A stretch of 64,000 bases of DNA from Escherichia phage EK8: sequence record PQ805430.1. One strand, written 5' to 3'. The notes under the pieces were generated by a model. It ran no database searches. It was not told where the DNA came from and was given only the letters and a program-made list of their open reading frames with translations. This document shows positions 10,061 through 39,355 of this stretch, in pieces. Position numbers and translations under genes: made by a program. Position 1 is the first letter of the stretch; each line of letters starts with the position of its first letter.

Positions 10061-12145
10061 TTACTTCGCCAGGGTTTCAATCATCGCAGCAACTTCGTCG
10101 CTGACGCCGAGTTTAGCCCAGGATTTCTTGGCCGAACGCTTAATAGCCAGTGCGTCACGCGCAATGCTTTCGTTGATGGTGCTGCCTTTCAGCAGAGCTT
10201 CCATCTGAGCTTTCGGTGAACCTGCTTTCGCTGGCTTAGCCTTTTTCTCAGTCAGGCCGTCAAAGTCATCGACTTTTTTAACGGCGACCGGAGGCTTAGC
10301 AGCATCAGCCGCTTCGGTAACAACTTTACCGATATCGTCGGACAGCCCAAGAGCAGTCCAGCTTTTCTTACTGGCTTTCTTAAACAGAGCCAGTTCGAGA
10401 GCTTTATTGCCCGCACCAGTGCTGGTCGTTGCAGACTTAAACTCAGCATACAGACGCTGAGCAGTCTGAGCTTTGGTTTCACGTTTCACGTCGTCACCTT
10501 TCGGTTTAACCGGGGTCAGGTTTTCAACAGAGTTGGCCTTAACCGGTTCCGGTTTCAGATCCGTTGCTTTCACTTCCGGGGAAGCTGGTGCAACCGGTAC
10601 ATGCTTTTCATCGCCAATCGGATCGATGTTGGTGTTACGGATATCACCTTCGACCAATTCGGCTACCGTGGTATCTACGCCGTCCAGATCGGTGATGGTC
10701 AGTTTGGAACCTTTCTGACCGCCAATCTGTACAGTCTGGATTACCGGGATGTGCTTACCGCGCAGGACTGCGTTGAGGATTTCAGCACCACCGTCGATAG
10801 ATGACAGCTTGCCACCACGGTTAACGTGATTGGCCTGCTTATCGTTCAGCAGAGCGACGATGTGATACCCGGCCACACGCATTTTATTGTTGTTGTACTC
10901 TGGCACCGCGATAACGTCTTCCGGGGCTACTTTACCAACAATGGTAAATTCACCAGAGAAGCCGCTCAGGTAGCTGAGTGCAGCAACATGCAGACCGTTG
11001 GAACAGTCCTGACGACGATCCGGGTCAACCAGAGATTCATCCATAAAGACACGGGAACCCACTTTCTGTTTGACGTTACGGGTGTGACAGTCAACCATGA
11101 TGCCCGCATCTTTTTCGGATTTAACACCGGATGCAGTCAGGCGTTTGTAGATCACGATGGAGCCATCGTCAGCAATCGGCAGATCGCCGTGCTTCATGAA
11201 CTTCATCAGGTCTTCAACGCTGAAACGGCGTTTGTGAACCACCGTACCCAGGCGTTCCAGGAATTTCTGGAAGCCAGTGAAGTCTTTCAGATCCGTGGCT
11301 GCTTTAACTTGTGCAGCCAGGTGCTGAGCTTCCGGGATGATGGTACGGCCACCGTTGGTAACCGCCACTACCGTTTCGTCTTCGGTCAGCTTTTCGTGGA
11401 ACTTCGGATCGGATGCAGGTACTGCTTCCTTCTCCAGAATGTCCAGTCGAGCATTGGCCTCAGCGATTTTCTGCTCATTGGTTTGAACCGGAGCAACCGG
11501 AGCCGGAGCATTGGCAGGCTTGTACGTTACCACACCGCCCAGGCGAGCCAGTTCGGTTACGAACAGCTTAACCCGTGCATCGTTAACATCATACGCCACG
11601 AGAACCGGCAGGCTGCTGGATACCAGGTCATGGGCTTCTTTCAGCCCAGCCCCGGCGACAGCACGGATAGCTTTGATAACAGCAACCTTCTGCCCCTGCG
11701 GGTATGCTTCCAGCATCACGTCATAGTTACCCGGAGGGATAACCACGTCGTCGAACTCAGTCTCTACCGACTCGCCGGGGATAACCCCCAGCTTGATCGG
11801 ATTGACATAAGCAGACGGTGCCGGTTGGGTAACCGCAGGCTGCTCAGGTTCATCACTGAACCAGTCAGCAATACGTTTTTTCGCCACTTTGAAGAAGCGA
11901 ACAACACCATTACTGGCTTTCTCTGCTTCATCAAATTCCGGCTGATGGACAACCGGTATAACCGGTGCCAGGGAGACTTCCACTGCACGAGGGGGAACCT
12001 CGGACAGCGGAGCCTTCACCGTTTCCATAATGCGGGTGACACGAGGATCACCCTGCTTTACGGTTACGGTATCACCGTCCTCGGTAAAGAGGACGATGTT
12101 CGCAGAGTCAACTGACACTGCGATCACCACAACTGAATTTTTCAT
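10061..12145 (-). CDS. rIIB: rIIB-like protein with N-terminal extension and C-terminal tandem repeats
   Basis: central DCSNGLHVAALSYL...VIAVPEYNNNKMRVAGYHIV resembles T4 rIIB core as recalled; adjacent to rIIA-like gene with 4-nt overlap; residues ~140-209 resemble ribosomal L7/L12 CTD; two ~35-aa repeats (KKSW..LG.SD) at C-terminus. Confidence 0.6.
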   Translation of the reverse strand: MKNSVVVIAVSVDSANIVLFTEDGDTVTVKQGDPRVTRIMETVKAPLSEVPPRAVEVSLAPVIPVVHQPEFDEAEKASNGVVRFFKVAKKRIADWFSDEPEQPAVTQPAPSAYVNPIKLGVIPGESVETEFDDVVIPPGNYDVMLEAYPQGQKVAVIKAIRAVAGAGLKEAHDLVSSSLPVLVAYDVNDARVKLFVTELARLGGVVTYKPANAPAPVAPVQTNEQKIAEANARLDILEKEAVPASDPKFHEKLTEDETVVAVTNGGRTIIPEAQHLAAQVKAATDLKDFTGFQKFLERLGTVVHKRRFSVEDLMKFMKHGDLPIADDGSIVIYKRLTASGVKSEKDAGIMVDCHTRNVKQKVGSRVFMDESLVDPDRRQDCSNGLHVAALSYLSGFSGEFTIVGKVAPEDVIAVPEYNNNKMRVAGYHIVALLNDKQANHVNRGGKLSSIDGGAEILNAVLRGKHIPVIQTVQIGGQKGSKLTITDLDGVDTTVAELVEGDIRNTNIDPIGDEKHVPVAPASPEVKATDLKPEPVKANSVENLTPVKPKGDDVKRETKAQTAQRLYAEFKSATTSTGAGNKALELALFKKASKKSWTALGLSDDIGKVVTEAADAAKPPVAVKKVDDFDGLTEKKAKPAKAGSPKAQMEALLKGSTINESIARDALAIKRSAKKSWAKLGVSDEVAAMIETLAK

Positions 12146-14580
12146 TTTTTATTTCCGTTTTTCATCGCGATTAAAACGAGGGATCGGAGAGCAGCTTTTC
12201 TCTCCGGGTACATGTCGGCAATCTCACGGACTTGCTCAATCGTTAATTTACGAATCACAATATCCGACTTGATGGCCTTAATTTGCTTGATCCAAGCAAA
12301 CTCGGTCAGGTGCAAGGTTTCAACAACCTTACACTGCTCGTACTCTTCTTCGGTCAAGACCTCATCGGTGTACAGGCGATAGAGGCTGCACTCGTCGATA
12401 GCTTTGATTACAGCTTCCAAATCCTTACGGAATGTTAGCTTCTTCAAGCCAGGGACTTTAATGTCCAGCTTCTCCAGCATACGCAATGTGCCAGATTCTA
12501 TGTTATGGGCAGTGGACAGATCCGATTGACGTTCTTTGGTCAGGTAGGTCTTCATCTCTTTGCTGAGATAAATCTCCAGCATAGGTTTGATGAAATACTG
12601 ATCTACCGGAACCGCACCACGGCGTGCTGCCATGTTACGCTCGATACCGTTACGGACTACCACTGCGTTATCCAGCAGATTGTCATCCAGCATGGATGGC
12701 GTGCAGAAACGGCCCAGCTTATTGTGCTTCACATCGTCGTACTCAACGTAGAACAGCGGAGCGTCGGTATTACCTTTCCACTCTTTAGCTGTCTTGATTT
12801 TCGAACGTGTGAACACCATAACGCCTTTGTCGCCAGTGTCCACCATGTTACGGATGGGCACCAGGCCATTTGCGATTACTGGTTTGGCTTCAGCAAGTTT
12901 TTTACGCTGCTTTTTGTACTTCTCGACCGGATCCCATTCATGATTCAGGGTCAGGTCAACGACAGTCCAGCCAGCGTCAGTGAAGGCTTTGATCGGTGCA
13001 ACCTTTGCATCCTTCTTCATGCCGATGTGGTAAATGTAATAGTTCTTACGGAAGTCAGAGCCATTAAAACCAGGCCACTGCTCGCAGGAATACTCTACTT
13101 CTTTCAGGCGGGTAGTGATGAACACCACACGCTGAGTCAGGCAGTAGAGATTGCTCAGGATTTCCATGTCCTTGTGGTACAGGTGGAAATTCTTTGCGGT
13201 CAGCGAACGATAGCCTTTGAACTGAACCACACGAAGTGATCTCAGATCCAGGTCTTTATGCTCAAAGACTTTGGCTACCGGCTTCCAGATGAACTGGTAA
13301 TGGAAACGACGTAACGCATCGTTGCGGCTGGTATTTTTAGCCACGTTAAGGGCACCCAGCAGGGCACTTTCGATGCTCGGATGAATATTCCGCTCCGCGA
13401 GGAACTTCTTATACGAAGCCAGTTCACAATTTTTGAAGTATTTACGCCAGTGCTCAACGAGATCTTTACCCAGAGGTGAGGTCAGATAACGCTGTTGCAG
13501 ATCGGAAAAGCCACGGATGAAGTGATACCAGTTTTTATCCTGCAAACGGTTGGCATTGACATCCCGCAGTTCCTCGCCAACTTTCATGGCTGTTACCGGA
13601 ATGCTGGCACGGATATCTTTTTCGACACGCTTGGTCAGGTTAACGCAGAGGTCAACGATACCGTTCTCCGTCATCTTCTGGCTTGACAGTGCCTCACGGC
13701 CCGGTGTTAAAGCCAGAGTGTCAGGAGCAGCCTGAACGAGCATACGACGGATGTTCACGATACGCATGAAACGACGGATGGTGTCCAGGGCAGGACGAGT
13801 TGCCGGGGTATCCAGTGCCGGATAAACGACGTTACCATAACGGATAAACACTGCGTGCTCACCCATATAATCGTCATACCAGCGGTTCGAGTCCATGTGA
13901 TAAGAACCTGGCTCGAAGGACATACCCAGTGTTTCCAGACGGCCAGTGGCACCACGGTAATAACCGGATACTTCCAGATCCACTTTCATTTCGCCATGCA
14001 GCGTGATGTAACGGATGTACTGGAGGAACTCGTACTCATCCCCATCTTCGACACGGATACGCACTTCCAGACCGGTTTCAGTGGTCGGAGCGTCCATGAT
14101 TTTGGTAATACCCGGACGGCCACCAGATTCTATTGAGGATTTAGTTATGTTGTATACCGTCTTAGTTCCCTGGTTATACGAGATAACCCGGAAGCTGTCG
14201 GTATACGCGAATGGTGATTTACAGCCCAGGCCAAAGCCACCAGTCACATTGCTGTTGGTCTTTTTGGTGGACGCACCATAGGTGCCGTACACTTCACCCA
14301 TTTTGTCATGGGGAATGCCTGTACCGAAGTCACGGAAGATGAGATCACCTTCTTCGTTGATGGATACTTTAACGGCTGTGTCTTTCAGGCCAGCCTCAAT
14401 ATGGGCATCCCAGGAGTTGCAGAGCGTTTCACGCACTACAGCTAATTTCTGGTTTGAATAGAGGTTGGCTGACAAAATCTGGAAGAACGCCGGATCGTCA
14501 GAGATACCGAAGTTGATGGTCTGGTTGGCACCGCCCAGAGTTGCGGAAGACGCCAGTTGTGTTGAGTCGGCTACCTGCAT
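12142..14580 (-). CDS. rIIA: rIIA-like protein (GHKL-type ATPase fold)
   Basis: FFQILSANLYSNQKLAVVRE, DFGTGIP and GGFGLGCKSPFAYTDSF match T4 rIIA N-terminal GHKL-like motifs as recalled. Confidence 0.75.
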   Translation of the reverse strand: MQVADSTQLASSATLGGANQTINFGISDDPAFFQILSANLYSNQKLAVVRETLCNSWDAHIEAGLKDTAVKVSINEEGDLIFRDFGTGIPHDKMGEVYGTYGASTKKTNSNVTGGFGLGCKSPFAYTDSFRVISYNQGTKTVYNITKSSIESGGRPGITKIMDAPTTETGLEVRIRVEDGDEYEFLQYIRYITLHGEMKVDLEVSGYYRGATGRLETLGMSFEPGSYHMDSNRWYDDYMGEHAVFIRYGNVVYPALDTPATRPALDTIRRFMRIVNIRRMLVQAAPDTLALTPGREALSSQKMTENGIVDLCVNLTKRVEKDIRASIPVTAMKVGEELRDVNANRLQDKNWYHFIRGFSDLQQRYLTSPLGKDLVEHWRKYFKNCELASYKKFLAERNIHPSIESALLGALNVAKNTSRNDALRRFHYQFIWKPVAKVFEHKDLDLRSLRVVQFKGYRSLTAKNFHLYHKDMEILSNLYCLTQRVVFITTRLKEVEYSCEQWPGFNGSDFRKNYYIYHIGMKKDAKVAPIKAFTDAGWTVVDLTLNHEWDPVEKYKKQRKKLAEAKPVIANGLVPIRNMVDTGDKGVMVFTRSKIKTAKEWKGNTDAPLFYVEYDDVKHNKLGRFCTPSMLDDNLLDNAVVVRNGIERNMAARRGAVPVDQYFIKPMLEIYLSKEMKTYLTKERQSDLSTAHNIESGTLRMLEKLDIKVPGLKKLTFRKDLEAVIKAIDECSLYRLYTDEVLTEEEYEQCKVVETLHLTEFAWIKQIKAIKSDIVIRKLTIEQVREIADMYPERKAALRSLVLIAMKNGNKK

Positions 14581-14619
14581 TTGAAATTCCTCAAGTAAGA
14601 TTTAGAAAGGCTTTTAGTA

Positions 14620-14644
14620 AGAAAAAGCCAGATTAAATCTGGCT
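14620..14644 (-). terminator. rho-independent terminator (minus strand)
   Basis: 8-bp stem AGCCAGAT/ATCTGGCT with TAA loop, A-run on plus side. Confidence 0.55.
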
Positions 14645-14651
14645 TATTGGG

Positions 14652-14984
14652 TTAGATTTTTGGCAGCTTACCCGCCATAGCTTGCAGTACAAATACGGCC
14701 ATATCTGATGCACGATCATCAGAAAGGTCAGATAATTGGAATCCCCAGTCTTCATCCCATTCATCAGCAATACGCTGAACTTCGGCCAGACCCGCCTGCA
14801 CCATATCCGGGGTCGGAGTGGTGAACGCTTCTTCTAACTGTTGAATACGCTGAACGAGGGCGAGAGCCAGATTATCTCCAGTAAGGTCGCGCCAAAGGTG
14901 GCCATTACGATGAGCAACGAAATGAGCACCGCAATCGTGAGAGACTTCATATTCGCCTACCTTCACAATGGTTTTGGTTGTCAT
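14652..14984 (-). CDS. hypothetical protein
   Basis: 110-aa ORF in replication gene block. Confidence 0.5.
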   Translation of the reverse strand: MTTKTIVKVGEYEVSHDCGAHFVAHRNGHLWRDLTGDNLALALVQRIQQLEEAFTTPTPDMVQAGLAEVQRIADEWDEDWGFQLSDLSDDRASDMAVFVLQAMAGKLPKI

Positions 14985-15508
14985 ACAAACACTCCTAAAG
15001 TGTTCTTGGTCGCACGCTGGAACAGCATATCCAGGTTATGCGCATGTTTGGTTTTAAACTCGGCTACCTGCTCATCACTGAGAGGCTGGAAGTGTTCCAG
15101 GTCGAGTTCCTCTTTGATGCCAATCTTCCGCATTTGTTCATGCAGAAGGCTCGGCAATAGTTGGTACAGGTGAGTTGCACTTTCACACCGGCCTACGGCA
15201 GCGATCAGTGCAGCATTAACGTAGGCACCTTCCTCATCCAGAATCTTCCGGCGTTTTGCCATCAGTTCGTGCATTTCGGGATACAGGAATTTGGCCAGTG
15301 TCTGGGGGAAACGTACCGGTTGCGATTCGAACCGGAATACTTCACCCCCGAACGTAAACGTTAATAACGGCGACTTTCTCGCTTCCTGGTTTCGCTGGGC
15401 AATCGACATGATCTTCTCATCGAAGTAGTCAATCGCCCCCTGAAACATGTAACGGTGCAATAGCTTCACCACAAGCTGGATATCTTTGGTTGTCAGGTCT
15501 TTGATCAT
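14981..15508 (-). CDS. hypothetical protein
   Basis: 175-aa ORF, overlapping stop/start with neighbours. Confidence 0.5.
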   Translation of the reverse strand: MIKDLTTKDIQLVVKLLHRYMFQGAIDYFDEKIMSIAQRNQEARKSPLLTFTFGGEVFRFESQPVRFPQTLAKFLYPEMHELMAKRRKILDEEGAYVNAALIAAVGRCESATHLYQLLPSLLHEQMRKIGIKEELDLEHFQPLSDEQVAEFKTKHAHNLDMLFQRATKNTLGVFV

Positions 15509-16860
15509 CAGTACAGATCCCCAGTAAGAAATAGCTGCTTACGGGCACGAGTGCAGGCCACATACAGAAGCCGCATACGGATTTCAGTGTCCACACAATA
15601 CCCGATATCAGCCAGGTCAATATAAACACGTCGGAAGGTGGAACCCTGTGACTTGTAGACTGTCTGGGCATAGACCGGGCGTAAGTCTACCCAGGTGTCT
15701 TTCACCTTACGCATCTGGTGCAGATAGGCTTCGGCTGCTTTAGGCTCCGGGGTATTCTCATACTCCCGGTACAGTCGGTTGATGATTTTGGAGATGGCCT
15801 TATGGTCATGTGGCATGAAGAACGTTCGTTCGTTCTCGTTGTTCATGTACACCCAATAGCCAGGCTCTCCATGCTGAACATCCTCTTCGAGGGCACTGAT
15901 ATAAACCAGGCCATCAGTACGGATGCCACCAGTGCCTTTCTTGCCAGCCACGTAGTGGTTGTTGATCGCATAATCCCCGGCCTGAAAGTCACGGCTACCG
16001 GTGATGATTCTGTTCATGCCTTTGTTGTAGGCTTGAACCCGGTTGTTACGAAAGGCCAGGAATTTGCTGGTGCTAAAGATCCAGTCGTCGGACGACATAT
16101 CCGCCAGCATTACCCGGTCGAACTGAGGACGTGGCATCCACACGATGTGTTTCCCGTCGATAGGACAGGGCGGGATACGCCAGTCCTTCGCCAGAATACG
16201 CTTACGCAGTTCCACGCTGAGTTTGAAGATGGGCGTATCAGTATCAAAACGCTCCACGATCTTAAGCTCAGCTTTACGGAAGCCAGATTCGAATGCAGGC
16301 ATCGACTTGGCATCGGCATTCTTCAACTGAGCAGGATCACCAACAAAGATAACTTTCGTATCCTTGCTGATTTTCTTCTTAATCCAGTCGAATAATTCCT
16401 CGTCGATATAGCTCGCCTCATCAATGATGAGGATGCACTTACCGGCCTTGAAATCGTATTTCCGGTCGGCCAGTCTGTCCTTCCTGGGATTGTTGGGATC
16501 CGGTGCCATAGTCAGCCCCAGATAGCTGTGAATAGTTTTCACCTCTGGATTCATGACAGTAATGTCATCACCAGTCACCGACGCATCCAGGCCACGGAGT
16601 TGAATCTCCATAGCCTCACATGCTTTATTGGTGGTGGCGGTGAAATTGATAGGCAGACCGGTTTTACCCTTCAAACCCAGCAGTCGCCGGGTCTTATGGA
16701 AGTCATGAAGGGTACGCACGAAGTGCTTTAGCACGAATGTCTTACCGGTTCCCCCGGCACCCTCCAGAACCATAAACTGTTCTGTGGAGCTACCGAGGAA
16801 CCCGTGCATTATCTGAATGGCCGATTCCTGATCGGCATTAAGTTTTACGTCTTCGGACAT
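15508..16860 (-). CDS. SF1 DNA helicase (RecD/Dda-like)
   Basis: Walker A LEGAGGTGKTF; Walker B LIIDEASYI; C-terminal YVACTRARKQLFL helicase motif. Confidence 0.8.
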   Translation of the reverse strand: MSEDVKLNADQESAIQIMHGFLGSSTEQFMVLEGAGGTGKTFVLKHFVRTLHDFHKTRRLLGLKGKTGLPINFTATTNKACEAMEIQLRGLDASVTGDDITVMNPEVKTIHSYLGLTMAPDPNNPRKDRLADRKYDFKAGKCILIIDEASYIDEELFDWIKKKISKDTKVIFVGDPAQLKNADAKSMPAFESGFRKAELKIVERFDTDTPIFKLSVELRKRILAKDWRIPPCPIDGKHIVWMPRPQFDRVMLADMSSDDWIFSTSKFLAFRNNRVQAYNKGMNRIITGSRDFQAGDYAINNHYVAGKKGTGGIRTDGLVYISALEEDVQHGEPGYWVYMNNENERTFFMPHDHKAISKIINRLYREYENTPEPKAAEAYLHQMRKVKDTWVDLRPVYAQTVYKSQGSTFRRVYIDLADIGYCVDTEIRMRLLYVACTRARKQLFLTGDLY

Positions 16861-16877
16861 GATTACCTCTTAGAGGA

Positions 16878-18047
16878 TCAATCGTCCTCCGGCATTTTAA
16901 AGTGTACAACCTGACCGAATGGCGGTGTGAAACCTGGGTTACCATAGACTGCCCAGATCACCGGTTTACGGGGGTTAGGAATGTTGTGCAGATTGTGGAT
17001 GTAACCATCCGTCAATACAACCAGCCAGCGGGACTGATCGGCAGCGTAGGATTCCATCAACTCGTCGATGACCGTACCACCACCGCCCTTCATCTCAATG
17101 TTCAGGAGAGCCTTGAGACTACGGACACGGTTTTTGCTACGCAGCACATGGTCAAACTGCATCACCTCGATATAGTCCGGGTTGAAGCCCTTCAATACGT
17201 GGTGAGTTTCACTGACGAAGAAGTTGAAGATCTTATCGGTTATTGATCCTGATGTATCCCAGCCGAAAGCACCTGGGCCTAAGCCAGGGGAATATTGACT
17301 CGGCAGATAGATACCCATCGGGTGATAACGACGGTTCGGACGCATCCAGTTGAAATCGCCTTTGGTCATGGCGAAAAACAGACGACGAAGCACACGCTGC
17401 CAGGGAATGGCAGGCTTAAGAATGCTGTCAATCAGTCGCTGTAAGTCTGGGCCAATATCGCTGGGCATTTTGCCAGCCATCTCAGCCATCGCCTTACCAC
17501 GCATGACAAGCTCTTGCACCTTCTGCTTAATTTCCTGTCTGGTTTCGGTCTGGTGAGGCCCGTTAGGTTCACGCAGATCCTTCATCGGCATACCGCCAAA
17601 CATATTGTCCGGGGTAGAGCCTTTACCATTCTCTTCCTCTTCATCCTGTAGCAGGCGATACACCTGCATAGTGGAGAGGTTACGGAAATCTTCACGCAGT
17701 AGACCACCCTTCGGCATTTTCAGGCCGACACGGGTGAGGATTAAGTTGATCACGTAATCCGCAGCTTTGTTCCAGAGGTCAGGATCCATACCCTGAGCAC
17801 GTTCAGTGCAGTGCTCCAGTGCGATATGCAGACCTTCATGGGCGACGATGAACTCACGCTCATCAGGGGTGAGGGATTTGAAAAATTCCTCGTTGTAGTA
17901 ACAGTTCAGCCCGTCCGTAAAGGCCGTGGCTTCTGTATTGTTAATGCTGTGCTTACAGCCCAGGATGATGTGAGTGAAGAACACCATCTCATCTTTTGTA
18001 AGTAGGCCGATCTTGGCCTTGCTCATAATTTTTTGGAAGTCCATCAC
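16878..18047 (-). CDS. vWA-domain protein with N-terminal HExxH motif (CobT-like)
   Basis: HEGLH within AHEGLHIALEH; MIDAS-like DTSGS; near AAA ATPase genes. Confidence 0.65.
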   Translation of the reverse strand: MMDFQKIMSKAKIGLLTKDEMVFFTHIILGCKHSINNTEATAFTDGLNCYYNEEFFKSLTPDEREFIVAHEGLHIALEHCTERAQGMDPDLWNKAADYVINLILTRVGLKMPKGGLLREDFRNLSTMQVYRLLQDEEEENGKGSTPDNMFGGMPMKDLREPNGPHQTETRQEIKQKVQELVMRGKAMAEMAGKMPSDIGPDLQRLIDSILKPAIPWQRVLRRLFFAMTKGDFNWMRPNRRYHPMGIYLPSQYSPGLGPGAFGWDTSGSITDKIFNFFVSETHHVLKGFNPDYIEVMQFDHVLRSKNRVRSLKALLNIEMKGGGGTVIDELMESYAADQSRWLVVLTDGYIHNLHNIPNPRKPVIWAVYGNPGFTPPFGQVVHFKMPEDD

Positions 18048-18588
18048 TGTTACCTTTCAGTAAGATCATGGTTTTAATTTCGAATGCCCGATCATTTATC
18101 AGCGACCAATCGAGTTGACGCAGATAATCGTCGAGCAGATATAGTTCACTTTTAATACCCTCATGGGTATCAACCACCATCCACTTATGTACCATGAACT
18201 CACTTTCGTCAGACCAGTAGTACATATCGCAATGCGCACGCATTGTTCTTGATGACTGTGGGTTGAATTTCTCCGTACTGATATTGATTATGCAGTGCGG
18301 AATGTAGGCTTGCCCCAGCAGCTTAGAAGGCGACGGGCTGGATGGTTTAATAAACCGGGAAAAGAGACAGAGAGGATTACGCTGGAATGACCACACGAGT
18401 GGCAACTGCATATCCTCTTGGATGGGTAGTATGATCCTCTGTGCCTCTTCTAAACGAGAATCGGGGACTACCACAAATATTTCTTCTGCCTTTTCGAATT
18501 GGGAAGCCCAGCTTTGTTCGTACTGTTCTTTCCATTCACGCCCGGAGGCCAGACGGGGCTGATCGTTTAGCCACGGATACTTGCTCAT
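17989..18588 (-). CDS. hypothetical protein
   Basis: 199-aa ORF between vWA and AAA genes. Confidence 0.5.
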   Translation of the reverse strand: MSKYPWLNDQPRLASGREWKEQYEQSWASQFEKAEEIFVVVPDSRLEEAQRIILPIQEDMQLPLVWSFQRNPLCLFSRFIKPSSPSPSKLLGQAYIPHCIINISTEKFNPQSSRTMRAHCDMYYWSDESEFMVHKWMVVDTHEGIKSELYLLDDYLRQLDWSLINDRAFEIKTMILLKGNSDGLPKNYEQGQDRPTYKR

Positions 18589-18603
18589 GATAGTCCCCTT
18601 TAC

Positions 18604-19236
18604 TTAGCCGACGATAGAACGGTCTTCTTTGCCGTGGCGTTTCACAATTTCAACGGCCATGTAATACGGCATTGCAGTGATGTTCAGGCTTTCCACTACA
18701 GCGGTTTTTCCGCCGTGCAGAATAGCGAACACATTAGGATTGTTACGGCTTTGGTAAACATCCACCGGGCCGGACATACCGTCCATACGAGTGATCTGCA
18801 CAAAACGCAGTTTGTTGGTCGGTTGTTTTGCTTCCGGCTTACCGAACATCGCGTTACATGCTTCGCAGTCGGTACGGCCACAATGCTTTTCAGGGATAGC
18901 CGCATCACGCAGAGCAGAGAACAGATAGCTCAGAGCGTCGATAGCATCATCCTGGCTTTGTGGATCAAAGATTTCGGGATCTTTATACTCCGGGTTCGGG
19001 CCAGCCGGTTCAGCCTGTTGATACGCAGTCTGGTCTTCGCCGGGTTTAGCCGGGTCAACAGCCACTTCGGGCATTACACCGACTTCCAGTGCAGCACCGG
19101 CAGCGACAACAGCCTCCTCTACGAGGTTACGCAGATTGGCTCGTTGATCCTGGCGAGCACGAGTGATTGCCAGTTCAATTGCCAGTTCTTGCAGGCTTTG
19201 TGGTAAAGAATTAAAGGTACGGATGGTATTAGACAT
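18604..19236 (-). CDS. hypothetical protein
   Basis: 210-aa ORF; CGRTDCEAC Cys cluster. Confidence 0.5.
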   Translation of the reverse strand: MSNTIRTFNSLPQSLQELAIELAITRARQDQRANLRNLVEEAVVAAGAALEVGVMPEVAVDPAKPGEDQTAYQQAEPAGPNPEYKDPEIFDPQSQDDAIDALSYLFSALRDAAIPEKHCGRTDCEACNAMFGKPEAKQPTNKLRFVQITRMDGMSGPVDVYQSRNNPNVFAILHGGKTAVVESLNITAMPYYMAVEIVKRHGKEDRSIVG

Positions 19237-19277
19237 TGACTGTCTCCAGTTAAAGTGGGGCCGAAGCCCCAGGGGGA

Positions 19278-20318
19278 TTAATGCCAGAGTTCTTTGCTGT
19301 TACGAGCGATCCAGTCCTTCATCGCTTCATGCTGGATGAGTGAATCGTCACGCGCCATGATGTGACGGAATGCGATTACCTGGTACTCCATCAGCATACG
19401 CTCGATGTACGGCACCAGTTTATCGATGTTGTCCTTATTGGCGTGCTGAGCCATTGAACCGGCTACAGCGTAAACCAGCGACGGATTATCATCGCTTTCC
19501 GGGCAACGGGCTTTCAGCGGGTCTGCCAGAATGTCAGCCAGCTTCGGCACCTGGTCGAAGATTTTACAGAATGCAATAAATTCAGCACCTACACCAGATG
19601 AGATACAGCCAGCCACCAGCGGCAGGTCAGCATCAGTTACCGGTTCGCCACGGATCAGCTTATCCAGGAACATCCAGGTACGCGGAGCAGCGAAGGTCAG
19701 GTCGTCGTGGTCAGGCTTGAAGTGATGCACATAGTCCGGTTTGAACTCCAGAAACGCAGCGATACGATAATCGATATTCTGCGTCAGGGCATACTTCATG
19801 AAGCAATCCAGGTTGGTATACACCTGGAAGTTGATCATACGAGACTGCAACGGAGTTGGTAACGGGTTAACGATGGCACCATCGTCTTCCATGTTACCGG
19901 CAGCGGCCAGGAGTGCATGGGAGTGCAGCTTACGCTGGCCTACCATTTTATCCAGGATCAGCTTGAATGCAGCAGCCTGTACGGACGGAGCCGCAGACGG
20001 CAGTTCATCCAGGAATACCAGCCAGCCTTTGTAGCCTTCGGGGATAGAATCCCCTTCGACCGGGAATACGTCGAACGGTACATACTCCGCAATGTTGCGG
20101 GCACCGGACGTGTTGAAGTATGGCAGACCGTTCATGTCAGCAGGGTCATACGTGCTCAGACGCACGTCAATGACCTTGAGGCTGAACTTTTCTGCGATGG
20201 TGCGAATGATATCGGATTTACCGATGGCAGGTGATCCATGCAGCATAGGCACCAGACGTTTTTTGAGCACACGTTCTACGAACGGGATGGAGTGATCCAG
20301 ACGGACTTGGGTTGTCAT
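19278..20318 (-). CDS. AAA+ ATPase (MoxR/CobS-like)
   Basis: Walker A LHGSPAIGKSD; Walker B LVFLDELP. Confidence 0.7.
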   Translation of the reverse strand: MTTQVRLDHSIPFVERVLKKRLVPMLHGSPAIGKSDIIRTIAEKFSLKVIDVRLSTYDPADMNGLPYFNTSGARNIAEYVPFDVFPVEGDSIPEGYKGWLVFLDELPSAAPSVQAAAFKLILDKMVGQRKLHSHALLAAAGNMEDDGAIVNPLPTPLQSRMINFQVYTNLDCFMKYALTQNIDYRIAAFLEFKPDYVHHFKPDHDDLTFAAPRTWMFLDKLIRGEPVTDADLPLVAGCISSGVGAEFIAFCKIFDQVPKLADILADPLKARCPESDDNPSLVYAVAGSMAQHANKDNIDKLVPYIERMLMEYQVIAFRHIMARDDSLIQHEAMKDWIARNSKELWH

Positions 20319-20320
20319 AA

Positions 20321-21088
20321 CTATACCTGTAAGAAGTAACGGTGAATGAGTTGATTCACAACACGGACGCCAATAGCATTCGTCTTGTAGACCATTTTAA
20401 GTTGGGCCTGCACTTCGTTGATGACCTTCTTCTTGTACTGGCTTAAGTTCTTGCCAGTACCGAACGCCTTAATGTACTCGTCCAGTAAACGAGACTCCGG
20501 CACCAGGTCGAGAAGGGATTGCAGGGACGGTCGGATGGTACTGAAATGCAGTGCCACACGTCCTAAAAATTCTGTACGCACACCCAGTTCACGCATACGG
20601 TCGTGGGTGAGGTTAGCTTCGCCATTGAAAGCACCAGCGAACACGAATAATACGTGCTCAACGGAGACTTTCTCGTACTTGCCATAGTCACCAAAGACAC
20701 TGGCGGTACTGCTTTCCAGCATGGTGAGGAACTCGTTCTGGACACCGGCCAGAGCTTCGTGAGTCTCACCGCCTACGCCATTGGTAAACAGCTTATCGAA
20801 CTCGTCTACGAAGATTACGATGCCGTTTACCCCGACCATTCCCCGGAGGGGAGCCAGGGCTTTGGATAACGAGTTACCCGATACACCTTCTTTGGTTAAA
20901 CCAGCAGCGTTGACTTCCAGCATCTGAATTTCACGCTCTTTGGCGAGAGTCGAGATCAGGTGAGATTTACCAGATCCTGATTCACCCGACAGGATGAAGT
21001 GAGGGCGGATCGCACCTTTAGATTTAGTGTAAGCATCAAAGACGCGGCCTAATACGCCCGCAACTTCTTCTTGTTCTGGGAGAATCAT
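20321..21088 (-). CDS. P-loop ATPase (AAA-like)
   Basis: Walker A SGESGSGKSHL; Walker B IVIFVDEFDKL. Confidence 0.65.
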   Translation of the reverse strand: MILPEQEEVAGVLGRVFDAYTKSKGAIRPHFILSGESGSGKSHLISTLAKEREIQMLEVNAAGLTKEGVSGNSLSKALAPLRGMVGVNGIVIFVDEFDKLFTNGVGGETHEALAGVQNEFLTMLESSTASVFGDYGKYEKVSVEHVLFVFAGAFNGEANLTHDRMRELGVRTEFLGRVALHFSTIRPSLQSLLDLVPESRLLDEYIKAFGTGKNLSQYKKKVINEVQAQLKMVYKTNAIGVRVVNQLIHRYFLQV

Positions 21089-21159: not shown

Positions 21160-21552
21160 TTAACGACAGTCGAACGCAATACCGAATTGCTTCTGGCCTT
21201 CGTAGCGGAATACGCCATAGAAGCCCGCATACTGGCCTGTGCCTTTGCTGAACAGCAGACCAATGTTGTTGTAGCCCTGTATACCAGAAGGCTTCTGGAT
21301 GATGAGCTGAGGCGACACCATTGCTACTTTGCCTTTCGCGTTAATCACGGTGAATCGGTCACCCTGATCACGGATGAAGGAGATGGCCAACGGCTGATCC
21401 GGTTTACCCGTTTCAGTGCGAACAGCCTGACACCAGAGATCAGTAGCCGGGGCGGAGGCAACCGCCGTAACCTGCGTAGCAGGTGTAGGCTGGTTGACGA
21501 CGCACCCAGCAAGAGAAAAAACAGCGACAGCAACGAGAATAAGTTTTTTCAT
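21160..21552 (-). CDS. lipoprotein
   Basis: MKKLILVAVAVFSLAG-C signal peptide with lipobox LAGC; second Cys at C-terminus. Confidence 0.7.
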   Translation of the reverse strand: MKKLILVAVAVFSLAGCVVNQPTPATQVTAVASAPATDLWCQAVRTETGKPDQPLAISFIRDQGDRFTVINAKGKVAMVSPQLIIQKPSGIQGYNNIGLLFSKGTGQYAGFYGVFRYEGQKQFGIAFDCR

Positions 21553-21723: not shown

Positions 21724-22044
21724 TTTGATGCCCCTTAAACCAGGGATTGAGTTAAGCCGGGAGATGTATTCACCGATGTAAAACAACTCATTAATTTCAT
21801 CTTGCGTACAAATTAATTTATTGCCTGCATCAGTGATGATTTCCCAGGTTGGTATGAATACTAAAGCCGGGATACCATTGCCTTCACGCAGAACGAACGC
21901 ATTACCGCAACGGCGACCATCTTTAGTGAAAAGCTGGCGACCAACCTCTACTACGCCATCAGGCTTATAAGCAGTGGCCCATTCGGGTAAAACTTCACGT
22001 TTGAATTGCTCATTTTGATCTTCAAAGTAATCTTCAAAGCTCAT
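21712..22044 (-). CDS. hypothetical protein
   Basis: 110-aa ORF. Confidence 0.5.
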   Translation of the reverse strand: MSFEDYFEDQNEQFKREVLPEWATAYKPDGVVEVGRQLFTKDGRRCGNAFVLREGNGIPALVFIPTWEIITDAGNKLICTQDEINELFYIGEYISRLNSIPGLRGIKDES

Positions 22045-22403
22045 ACCTGCTCCTTCTTGGCACGCTGCATTCGTTTACAATTCTCTTTCTGGCTTACCAG
22101 TTCGAGGTGTTCCGGATTACAGCAGAGACGGTTACGGCATTTATGATCCACCTGCTTATTGCCGGGGATGTAGCCGAAGTAATGGGTAGCCATGACGATG
22201 TGAGTAGCACACGTCTGGCTGTTAATACTGATACGGCCATAACCTCCACCACGTCCTTCGCCCGAAGTGGGGCCAGTCCAGATATGACAAGGGGATACGA
22301 CACCGTTAACGCGATAACCGCAGTCACGGATATCCACCCGCTTCATGATACGGTCGCAGATTTCCTGACGACGATCAGGATGGGGATGTTTTTTCGTGAT
22401 CAC
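22041..22403 (-). CDS. HNH endonuclease
   Basis: Cys/His-rich core QVDHKCRNRLCCNPEHLELVSQKEN. Confidence 0.8.
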   Translation of the reverse strand: MITKKHPHPDRRQEICDRIMKRVDIRDCGYRVNGVVSPCHIWTGPTSGEGRGGGYGRISINSQTCATHIVMATHYFGYIPGNKQVDHKCRNRLCCNPEHLELVSQKENCKRMQRAKKEQV

Positions 22404-39198: not shown

Positions 39199-39274
39199 TG
39201 GATGGGGTATCTGGATTCGAACCAGAGAATGCCGATATCAAAGACCGGTGCCGTAACCACTTGGCTATACCCCA
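39199..39274 (-). tRNA. tRNA-Gln (anticodon UUG)
   Basis: hand-folded cloverleaf: acceptor TGGGGTA/TACCCCA, anticodon loop CTTTGAT, T-arm CTGGTTCGAATCCAG, encoded CCA; close to E. coli tRNA-Gln as recalled. Confidence 0.8.
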
Positions 39275-39279
39275 GAAGG

Positions 39280-39355
39280 TGGCGATGGGATGGAGATTCG
39301 AACTCCAATGTCGCGGATTAACAGTCCGGTGCTTTACCGAGTTAGCTATCCCATC
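39280..39355 (-). tRNA. tRNA-Asn (anticodon GUU)
   Basis: hand-folded: acceptor GATGGGA/TCCCATC, anticodon loop CTGTTAA, T-arm TGGAGTTCGAATCTCCA, discriminator G and encoded CCA; 5-nt spacer to tRNA-Gln. Confidence 0.8.

Follow-up and report, generated by a model that had tools for sequence, protein, structure and literature searches.

The five-gene AAA+/zincin-vWA block of Escherichia phage EK8 and its conserved two-gene core, the counterpart of N4 gp24/gp25

In the 64,000 nucleotides (nt) of Escherichia phage EK8 analysed here (record PQ805430.1, in the following the window), five open reading frames (ORFs) lie close together on the minus strand between positions 16,878 and 21,088. They encode two P-loop ATPases of 255 and 346 amino acids (aa), two proteins without assigned function (210 and 199 aa), and a 389-aa protein that combines an N-terminal HEGLH motif with the DTSGS motif of a von Willebrand factor A (vWA) domain carrying a metal ion-dependent adhesion site (MIDAS). 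A preliminary description of the locus had regarded these genes as one module within the replication block, and the locus raises the question which of the five belong together and what they may do. The ORFs were found exactly where that description had placed them and the block is indeed compact. The conserved unit, however, is a pair of genes, the 346-aa ATPase and the 389-aa zincin-vWA protein, whereas the other three are lineage-specific and separable from it. Judged by alignment, the pair is orthologous to gp24 and gp25 of phage N4, and it is a real and ordinary member of a known, widespread and experimentally uncharacterised two-gene cassette.

The window represents the nearly complete genome of an N4-like podovirus (Schitoviridae). 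It contains an ORF of 3696 aa, which is the size of the giant virion RNA polymerase of this family, and an ORF of 903 aa at the position of the DNA polymerase, while profile searches bore out the identity of rIIA and of a Dda-like helicase. In the region of the block the DNA is ~75% identical to Cbunavirus phages of Pectobacterium and Kosakonia. The structural genes are located at ~35-50 kb of the window, far from the gp24/gp25-like pair, which lies in the replication/early arm.

N4 gp24 aligns over its full length with the 346-aa ATPase at 40% identity (alignment A1), and N4 gp25 aligns over its full length with the 389-aa protein at 26% identity, with all motif residues in common. The catalytic, zinc-site and MIDAS residues, the gene order and the genome arm are the same in N4 and in the window. 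The N4 genes are direct neighbours, separated by 167 nt, and no ClpX-like gene is annotated nearby; in the window the pair is interrupted by two clade-specific ORFs and preceded, at a distance of 2 nt, by a ClpX-like AAA+ gene. In a comparison of 25 genomes, gp24 ("unknown") and gp25 ("vWFA domain") were counted among 14 core genes of N4-like phages, and both were listed as middle transcripts in N4 (PMC4193335). The virion proteins of N4-like phages as listed in the same paper do not include the pair.

The distribution of the pair extends well beyond this family. By tblastn, the zincin-vWA protein was found in at least 669 and the ATPase in at least 829 phage records, including jumbo phages, Vequintaviruses and one cyanophage. 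Hidden Markov models (HMMs) built for both proteins were then used on 84 loci, 80 of which came from scanning prokaryotes at one genome per species. The gp24-like ATPase was detected in 75 of the 84; where both genes were called, it stood upstream on the same strand in 72 of 73 loci and abutted or overlapped the zincin-vWA gene in 49. In the window the order and strand are the same, with a distance of 1.2 kb, and the order is also kept in cyanophage S-TIM5 and jumbo phage PBECO4. The cassette is furthermore present on chromosomal contigs of Nostoc, Cohnella, Arachnia, Acidovorax, Desulfobulbus and many Lachnospiraceae, and no third conserved gene stood beside it in the 80 genome loci.

Some neighbours of the pair recur. 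In Schitoviridae (window 10061-18047; N4, locus L002) and Vequintavirinae (phage BP9, locus L095, 22898-33034), rIIA/rIIB lie within a few kb of it, which may merely reflect common early/middle expression. In S-TIM5 (locus L092, 1514-4149) an Hsp20 gene lies directly upstream of the pair in the same orientation, and this fits a theme of protein quality control. The commonest neighbour of the bacterial cassette was the gene for the RNA-repair ligase RtcB (Pfam E = 1.8e-56), present in 13 of the 80 loci. It directly adjoins the cassette on the same strand in nine loci of Clostridia/Lachnospiraceae, which may represent one single lineage, and is more loosely linked in a Synergistaceae metagenome-assembled genome (MAG), in Acidovorax soli and in a Methylotenera MAG. 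In the literature searched, nothing linked RtcB to the cassette.

For the 389-aa protein, the preliminary description had proposed a zincin-like motif and a MIDAS-type vWA motif in one chain and had pointed to DUF2201 profiles. Both proposals were borne out. Pfam assigned DUF2201_N ("putative metallopeptidase") with E = 6.5e-37 and 128 bits (cutoff 23.2) and DUF2201 ("vWA-like") with E = 1.2e-20 and 74.3 bits (cutoff 26.4), besides a weak match to Peptidase_M48, and both DUF2201 domains were present in 120 of 120 listed homologues. The HExxH motif is conserved: in a set of 83 homologues from phages and bacteria, H70 and H74 occur without exception, H79 is kept in 82 and the catalytic E71 in 77, including all phage proteins of the set. 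Of the MIDAS residues, D264, S266, S268 and D347 are present in every one of the 83 homologues and T325 in 82, and the site is invariant in alignments A2 and A3. In the metagenomic alignments E71 is conserved to at least 90%, with one homologue (P0090) lacking the His-Glu. For a protein of this size and composition, the chance expectation for each short motif amounts to ~0.03-0.04. Because of the Pfam matches and the conservation of the residues in the 83 homologues, HEGLH and DTSGS are not chance matches.

The fold of both domains could be assigned as well. A profile of the N-terminal domain matched the minigluzincin projannalysin (4qhf) over a strand and the HExxH helix with E = 4.1e-5, while the values for M48 peptidases (3c37, HtpX, BepA; E = 0.07-0.4) and for proabylysin (E = 1) are not significant alone. 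In an AlphaFold2 model calculated with 46 sequences (mean predicted local distance difference test score, pLDDT, of 87.3), the HExxH motif lies inside a helix comprising residues 61-76. For the C-terminal part a vWA (Rossmann-like) fold was found, with structural matches including NorD, BchD and the MIDAS domain of midasin. Candidates for the third zinc ligand are H79 and D97; D97 was part of the search pattern, so that its conservation in that set is uninformative. Probably one of these two residues serves as ligand instead of the downstream Glu of the gluzincins. Single-sequence searches of the PDB with the ATPase and the zincin-vWA protein returned nothing meaningful, and the matches to chlorophyll a-b binding protein (E >= 0.04) are attributed to chance.

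Two variations of the family were observed among the bacterial homologues. In six proteins from Desulfobulbus/Desulfobacter-type contigs (loci L012, L014, L017, L020, L022 and L031) the catalytic Glu has given way to Thr or Leu, with no loss of H70, H74, H79 or any part of the MIDAS site; the zincin domain of these proteins may bind metal without cleavage. Bacterial zincin-vWA proteins are moreover often ~600 aa long and comprise an additional N-terminal region without a Pfam match.

The gp25 family, including N4 gp25 itself (L002:3165-4307), is labelled "HNH endonuclease" in PHROG (phrog_1314) and RefSeq. This identity was rejected for the 389-aa protein, which has no HNH match in Pfam and whose fold is that of a zincin and a vWA domain, while a real HNH gene upstream of the block scored E = 4.3e-17 in the same scan. 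The label is a propagated mis-annotation. As a guess, it could stem from insertions of homing endonucleases: in the schitoviruses Pollock (locus L089, 1033-2821) and pSb-1 (locus L088, 745-3846) an HNH homing endonuclease gene splits the gp24-like gene, and in pSb-1 the gp25-like gene is annotated as two pieces, too. Typical targets of homing endonucleases are conserved, important genes.

The 346-aa protein, which had been described as a MoxR-like P-loop ATPase, matched the PHROG family phrog_1297 ("ATPase") with E = 6.6e-122. Across the 35 sequences of alignment A1, the residues G28, P30, G33, K34, S35, D104, E105, N142, R160 and R213 are invariant; the coordinates given for them in the table were verified by translation. 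With the window protein alone Pfam returned only the generic AAA family below threshold (E = 0.008), and the assignment was made at the profile level. The best PDB match of the gp24-like family profile is the AAA ring of midasin (E = 2.2e-11), and of the 35 family members 22 matched AAA_5, 10 matched AAA_3 (MoxR family) and 8 matched bpMoxR, the last below its cutoff. Bacterial orthologues exceed the gathering cutoff of AAA_5 with 26.7-57 bits versus 22. The depositors of phage SP-058 had given the pair COG0714 (MoxR-like) and COG3864. In a broad sense, and on the strength of these profiles, the 346-aa protein is an AAA+ protein of the MoxR/midasin/AAA_5 class with intact catalytic residues, and the description as MoxR-like holds in this sense. 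The suggested relationship to CobS/CobT did not hold, as neither the 346-aa nor the 389-aa protein matched CobS/BchI/CobT/BchD in Pfam, NCBIfam or PHROG. BchD turns up only among many vWA fold matches of the 389-aa protein, and a weak "porphyrin biosynthesis" match in PHROG (E = 0.0021) belongs to the 255-aa AAA+ protein. The profile searches placed none of these proteins in an unrelated family.

The 255-aa protein is the other P-loop ATPase of the block, and like the 346-aa protein it has intact Walker A and Walker B motifs. Its matches in Pfam (AAA 1.7e-12, AAA_2 6.3e-11) and the PDB (ClpX 1um8, E = 1.8e-11; HslU 1ofh, E = 5.3e-11) characterise it as a generic ClpX/HslU-type AAA+ protein, while its NCBIfam scores for ClpX/HslU reach ~39-44 bits compared to cutoffs of ~359-371. 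In an alignment that also comprises E. coli ClpX and five phage homologues, the family keeps Walker A, Walker B, the arginine of EFxGR and the sensor-2 GxR; it has no zinc-binding domain, no RKH loop and no ClpP-docking IGF loop of ~33 residues, and the pore-1 motif GYVG of ClpX is changed to G[V/L/T]SG with loss of the pore-loop tyrosine. A true ClpX or HslU identity was rejected, as the defining loops and domains are missing. Since these elements are absent or altered, the annotation "ClpX" is an overcall, and as far as the alignment goes the protein cannot dock on ClpP in the known manner.

Nor is this gene a constant companion of the pair. It is found upstream of the pair in the phages phiA41, Kc283, SABI and LIT1; in SP-058 it lies downstream, and the annotations of the N4 region and of the Cbunavirus Horatius contain no such gene. 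The T5-like phage PM135 and the Queuovirinae phage R7M carry it next to or near RNase H, in regions in which no gp24/gp25 homologue was detected by HMM. In Salmonella phage FSL SP-058 (locus L087, 3126-8496) the run comprises the MoxR-like gene, the zincin-vWA gene, two small ORFs, the ClpX-like AAA+ gene and a 480-aa protein. The depositors assigned the latter to COG0465 (FtsH), while Pfam gives AAA only and no peptidase domain. With this FtsH-like AAA after the ClpX-like AAA+, three AAA+ proteins are counted in the run.

The two small ORFs are restricted to one clade. The 210-aa ORF has no Pfam match, and among the matches listed by tblastn it occurs only in Cbunavirus records, Kosakonia phage Kc283 among them; a weak positional homologue is present in Enterobacter phage SABI (32% identity, E = 5e-10). 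Together, the 210-aa and 199-aa ORFs are limited to Cbunavirus records including Kc283, with diverged copies in SABI, and only 10 clusters of the 199-aa family emerged when 1.84 billion representative proteins were searched exhaustively with its profile. The 199-aa ORF is not annotated in Kc283. The slot between the core genes contains a 172-aa ORF (ORF34) in LIT1 and a 191-aa ORF in a roseophage, and is empty in N4, SP-058 and S-TIM5. Homology of the LIT1 ORF to the 210-aa or 199-aa ORF was rejected (hhalign probability <1%). Since its contents differ among these phages, the slot is regarded as a variable site. In the 210-aa ORF, the motifs "VDPAKP" and "DDAIDAL" are conserved within a central acidic region, and a cysteine motif HCGRxxCxAC is present in the Cbunavirus copies and deleted in SABI. 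To see in the acidic peptide a ligand of the MIDAS would be pure speculation.

The zincin-vWA gene starts within the 3' end of the 199-aa ORF, which also supplies its Shine-Dalgarno sequence, an AAAGG 8 nt before an ATG at 18044. This ATG is probably the real start, from which the overlap amounts to 56 nt, as it does in the gene calls on metagenomic contigs with 99% identity. What is conserved at the C-terminus of the 199-aa family corresponds in position to the Shine-Dalgarno sequence and the first codons of the zincin-vWA gene, and the tail encoded in the overlap is predicted to be disordered. An overlap of 50-56 nt is also kept in Horatius and SABI, although the 199-aa protein is only ~31-57% identical there. 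A programmed frameshift from the 199-aa ORF into the zincin-vWA gene was rejected: the downstream frame is +1, while the A-AAA-AAT heptamer shifts by -1 into the third frame. Altogether, the arrangement is best read as translational coupling, not as a frameshift or a motif of the protein.

The five ORFs follow each other with gaps of 2, 41 and 15 nt and then an overlap of 59 nt, counted over the whole ORFs. The helicase gene begins 17 nt downstream of the 389-aa gene, so that the block runs straight on into it. A scan for promoters and terminators gave no signal that marks off the five genes; the block has a single terminator-like site on the minus strand, internal to the 255-aa gene, and the number of terminator-like sites in the scanned region is about that in shuffled sequence. 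On three metagenomic contigs (L098-L100) with a 99% identical ATPase, an independent gene finder called the same five genes. The exact sequence of the window ATPase was absent from public assemblies in an exact-sequence lookup. The coordinates are collected in the table.

Table. Genes, motifs and neighbouring features of the AAA+/zincin-vWA block (window positions, or locus where a bacterial contig is concerned)
Feature	Position or locus	Strand	Remark
255-aa ClpX/HslU-clade AAA+	20321-21088	minus	accessory gene; Pfam/PDB profiles
Walker A of 255-aa protein	20963-20986	minus	
Altered pore loop EGVSGN of 255-aa protein	20873-20890	minus	
Walker B of 255-aa protein	20801-20806	minus	
346-aa MoxR/AAA_5-class AAA+ ATPase	19278-20318	minus	core gene 1; N4 gp24 orthologue by alignment
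Walker A GSPAIGKS	20214-20237	minus	invariant in A1
Walker B D104-E105	20004-20009	minus	invariant in A1
Sensor-1 N142	19893-19895	minus	invariant in A1
R160, putative arginine finger	19839-19841	minus	invariant in A1
R213, putative sensor 2	19680-19682	minus	invariant in A1
210-aa ORF	18604-19236	minus	function unassigned; clade-specific; phrog_23180
199-aa ORF	17989-18588	minus	function unassigned; clade-specific
Overlap of 199-aa ORF with zincin-vWA start	17989-18047	minus	
389-aa zincin (DUF2201_N) and vWA/MIDAS (DUF2201) protein	16878-18047	minus	core gene 2; N4 gp25 orthologue by alignment
HEGLH	17826-17840	minus	residues 70-74
Zinc-site motif HEGLHIALEH (HExxHxxxxH)	17811-17840	minus	active-site helix, N-terminal domain
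MIDAS motif DTSGS (DxSxS)	17244-17258	minus	residues 264-268
MIDAS T325	17073-17075	minus	completes DxSxS...T...D
MIDAS D347	17007-17009	minus	completes DxSxS...T...D
130-aa lipoprotein	21160-21552		just upstream of the block
HNH_3 homing-type endonuclease	22041-22403		upstream of the block
tRNA-Gln (TTG) and tRNA-Asn (GTT)	39199-39355	minus	adjoining; near structural genes
RtcB upstream of ATPase	L042, L047, L050, L061, L063, L074, L079, L083		
RtcB downstream of zincin-vWA gene	L077		
RtcB 0.5-1.8 kb from cassette	L051, L071, L034		

As to the function of the pair, we lean slightly towards a MIDAS-targeted, ATP-dependent machine that remodels or processes a substrate which is likely not a virion protein, with the other three genes as mere neighbours. 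This mechanism is drawn by analogy with midasin, CbbQ-CbbO, NorQ-NorD and RavA-ViaA, the mechanisms of which are summarised in PMC7159879. Accordingly worded, the gp24-like ATPase would form a hexameric ring, on which the vWA domain would dock, and the MIDAS ion would grip an acidic residue of a substrate peptide. Hydrolysis of ATP would then pull or remodel the bound substrate and the fused zincin might cut the segment thus exposed, so that the pair would represent a two-component processing protease or chaperone, dependent on ATP and targeted by the MIDAS. The substrate is more likely a non-virion protein complex of the phage or the host in the replication phase than a capsid or tail protein, because gp24 and gp25 are middle genes in N4, because the window pair lies in the replication arm, because genes of nucleotide metabolism, Hsp20 or rII genes adjoin the pair in other phages, and because bacterial chromosomes hold the pair without phage genes beside it. 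The 255-aa, 210-aa and 199-aa genes are lineage-specific neighbours, probably co-transcribed with the pair; in the Cbunavirus clade their products may modulate it or supply substrates.

The known systems resemble this scheme in parts and differ from it in others. Midasin/Rea1 provides the best solved relative of the gp24-like profile with its AAA ring, and its MIDAS domain, which matches the vWA domain, is the model for gripping a substrate while the ring supplies the force. It is, however, a single eukaryotic chain of ~4700-4900 residues with six concatenated AAA modules and no peptidase, whereas the window encodes two small proteins with a fused zincin. In RavA-ViaA, CbbQ-CbbO, NorQ-NorD, CoxD-CoxE and BchI-BchD, the genes for an AAA+ protein and a MIDAS-vWA adaptor are adjacent as in the cassette; we know of none among these in which a zincin is fused to the vWA domain. 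Known metalloenzymes or Rubisco serve as clients of these bacterial MoxR-vWA pairs. In scaffold, the N-terminal domain resembles minigluzincins (projannalysin MJ1213, proabylysin) and M48 peptidases (HtpX, BepA); it differs from them in being soluble and joined to a vWA domain. In CLCA proteins, too, a zincin peptidase is followed by a vWA domain, but they are secreted, self-cleaving and eukaryotic and have no AAA+ partner. The pair of the group 2.2 jumbo phages has the same two-protein architecture, and jumbo phage PBECO4 holds homologues of both members in the same order. The group 2.2 pair belongs to jumbo myoviruses and was proposed to act in virion assembly, while the window pair lies among the replication genes of a 75-kb podovirus (PMC7824862).

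Several observations weigh against the proposed machine. The six bacterial homologues without catalytic Glu keep all three His, which indicates that proteolysis is not universally required and perhaps not the main function. The gp24-like family profile gave no match at E <= 1 to the solved structures of MoxR, RavA, CbbQ and NorQ, so that these ATPases constitute a distinct subfamily, and the window ATPase itself lies under every MoxR-type threshold of Pfam. The linkage of the two genes is not absolute, as they lie 3.7 kb apart on divergent strands in Vequintavirus BP9. Binding between ATPase and adaptor, peptidase activity and substrate are all inferred, and none of the four reasons for a non-virion substrate is conclusive. 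Finally, the literature on DUF2201, COG3864 and the function or essentiality of N4 gp24/gp25 yielded mentions in genome annotations only and no experimental work. In this respect the preliminary description was right to regard the phage role as not established. It had missed that the pair has already been catalogued (PMC4193335) and that a role has been proposed: a two-subunit system of the MoxR type was noted by Hardies et al. (2007) in a Bacillus jumbo phage (PMC2147016), and for group 2.2 jumbo phages Iyer et al. (2021) favoured a part of the MoxR and metallopeptidase-vWA pair in the assembly of virions, including proteolytic processing (PMC7824862).

Transferred to the window, this proposal would make the pair a chaperone and cochaperone that assemble parts of the virion and process structural proteins, and a MoxR-vWA pair implicated in tail development of the archaeal virus ATV lends it weight (PMC7824862). 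In S-TIM5 a virion structural/packaging gene follows ~240 nt downstream of the pair. To our knowledge, no prohead protease is annotated in N4-like phages, which also counts in its favour. We nevertheless consider a virion role unlikely, if worth keeping in view, for the middle-gene status in N4, the position far from the structural genes and the absence from the listed N4-like virion proteins (PMC4193335) all argue against it, as does the bacterial cassette, which has neither phage structural genes nor a conserved third gene beside it. The loss of the Glu with retention of three His in the six bacterial homologues would suit a different function, namely that of a chaperone for metal delivery or cofactor insertion like NorQ-NorD, CoxD-CoxE, BchI-BchD and CobS-CobT, in which the HExxHxxxxH domain holds or hands over the metal. 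The structural matches of the vWA domain to NorD and BchD point in the same direction, and so does RtcB, an Mn2+-dependent enzyme, next to the cassette in nine Clostridia loci and more loosely in three others. Against this stand the catalytic Glu, which is kept in 77 of the 83 homologues, in every phage protein and to at least 90% in the metagenomic alignments, the resemblance of the scaffold to true peptidases (minigluzincins, M48), and the lack of a client metalloenzyme conserved beside the pair in phages. Such a metal chaperone is distinctly unlikely but, like the virion role, worth keeping in view. The RtcB neighbourhood can also be read in another way, in which the pair would be a new kind of two-component ATP-dependent protease with substrates chosen by the MIDAS and not by a degradation tag. 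Since the bacterial cassette repeatedly adjoins RtcB, a conserved cellular target in RNA repair or translation is hinted at, which N4-like and several other large phages would reprogramme or protect during infection, and the 210-aa and 199-aa ORFs would act as adaptors or substrates; this is quite an improbable extension of the protease idea.

That all five genes form one obligate machine, a remodeller with several ATPases composed of the ClpX-like AAA+, the MoxR-like ATPase, the two small proteins and the zincin-vWA protein, is suggested by their tight spacing, by the same five-gene order in Kc283, SABI and the near-identical metagenomic contigs, and by the similar order in LIT1 (ClpX-like, small ORF, gp24-like, ORF34, gp25-like). 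The ClpX-like gene, however, is not annotated near the pair in N4 and Horatius, occurs in PM135 and R7M in regions where no gp24/gp25 homologue was found, and lies on the other side of the pair in SP-058, while the small ORFs belong to one clade, with an unrelated ORF or nothing in the slot elsewhere. With no delimiting signal before the helicase gene, an obligate five-gene unit appears very improbable. Least to be expected is a role in conflict or counter-defence, in which the cassette would be a phage relative of bacterial MoxR-vWA conflict systems and would disarm a defence protein of the host. It is true that several conflict systems predicted in bacteria are built around MoxR-vWA couples (PMC7159879), that 8 of the 35 family members show weak bpMoxR matches, and that the neighbourhoods of the bacterial cassette vary. 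But a strictly conserved core gene of N4-like phages is atypical of fast-changing counter-defence genes, and no third VMAP, iSTAND, FtsH or beta-propeller component was present in the 80 genome loci. The conserved third component of the ternary MoxR-vWA conflict system (Kaur et al. 2020) was likewise not found in these loci. A known anti-phage defence system was also rejected as identity of the pair, which PADLOC models matched only as generic P-loop noise.

Five of the 14 genes common to all N4-like phages are listed without known function, and gp24 and gp25 are two of these five. A function for the cassette would close a gap in what is understood of a large family with candidates for therapy, and it might turn out to represent a new type of ATP-dependent protease. 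The copy in the window is typical and no easier to test than that of N4 itself. The contribution of the present analysis is to set the conserved two-gene core apart from its lineage-specific neighbours and to correct two widespread mis-annotations, "HNH endonuclease" for the gp25 homologues and "ClpX" for the 255-aa AAA+ protein. Small leads are provided by the bacterial RtcB adjacency and by the variants without Glu that keep the His ligands.

Just upstream of the block, the window contains a 130-aa lipoprotein with a lipobox signal, which weakly matches Cor superinfection-exclusion proteins (phrog_1119, E = 3e-4), and the HNH_3 homing-type endonuclease gene mentioned above (E = 4.3e-17). The flanks of the metagenomic contigs L098-L100 differ from the window in that a Band_7 gene (278 aa) and two small ORFs are located on the upstream side of the lipoprotein gene; L099 has, moreover, a further HNH_3 endonuclease between the zincin-vWA gene and the helicase. 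The two tRNA genes of the table adjoin each other near the structural genes.

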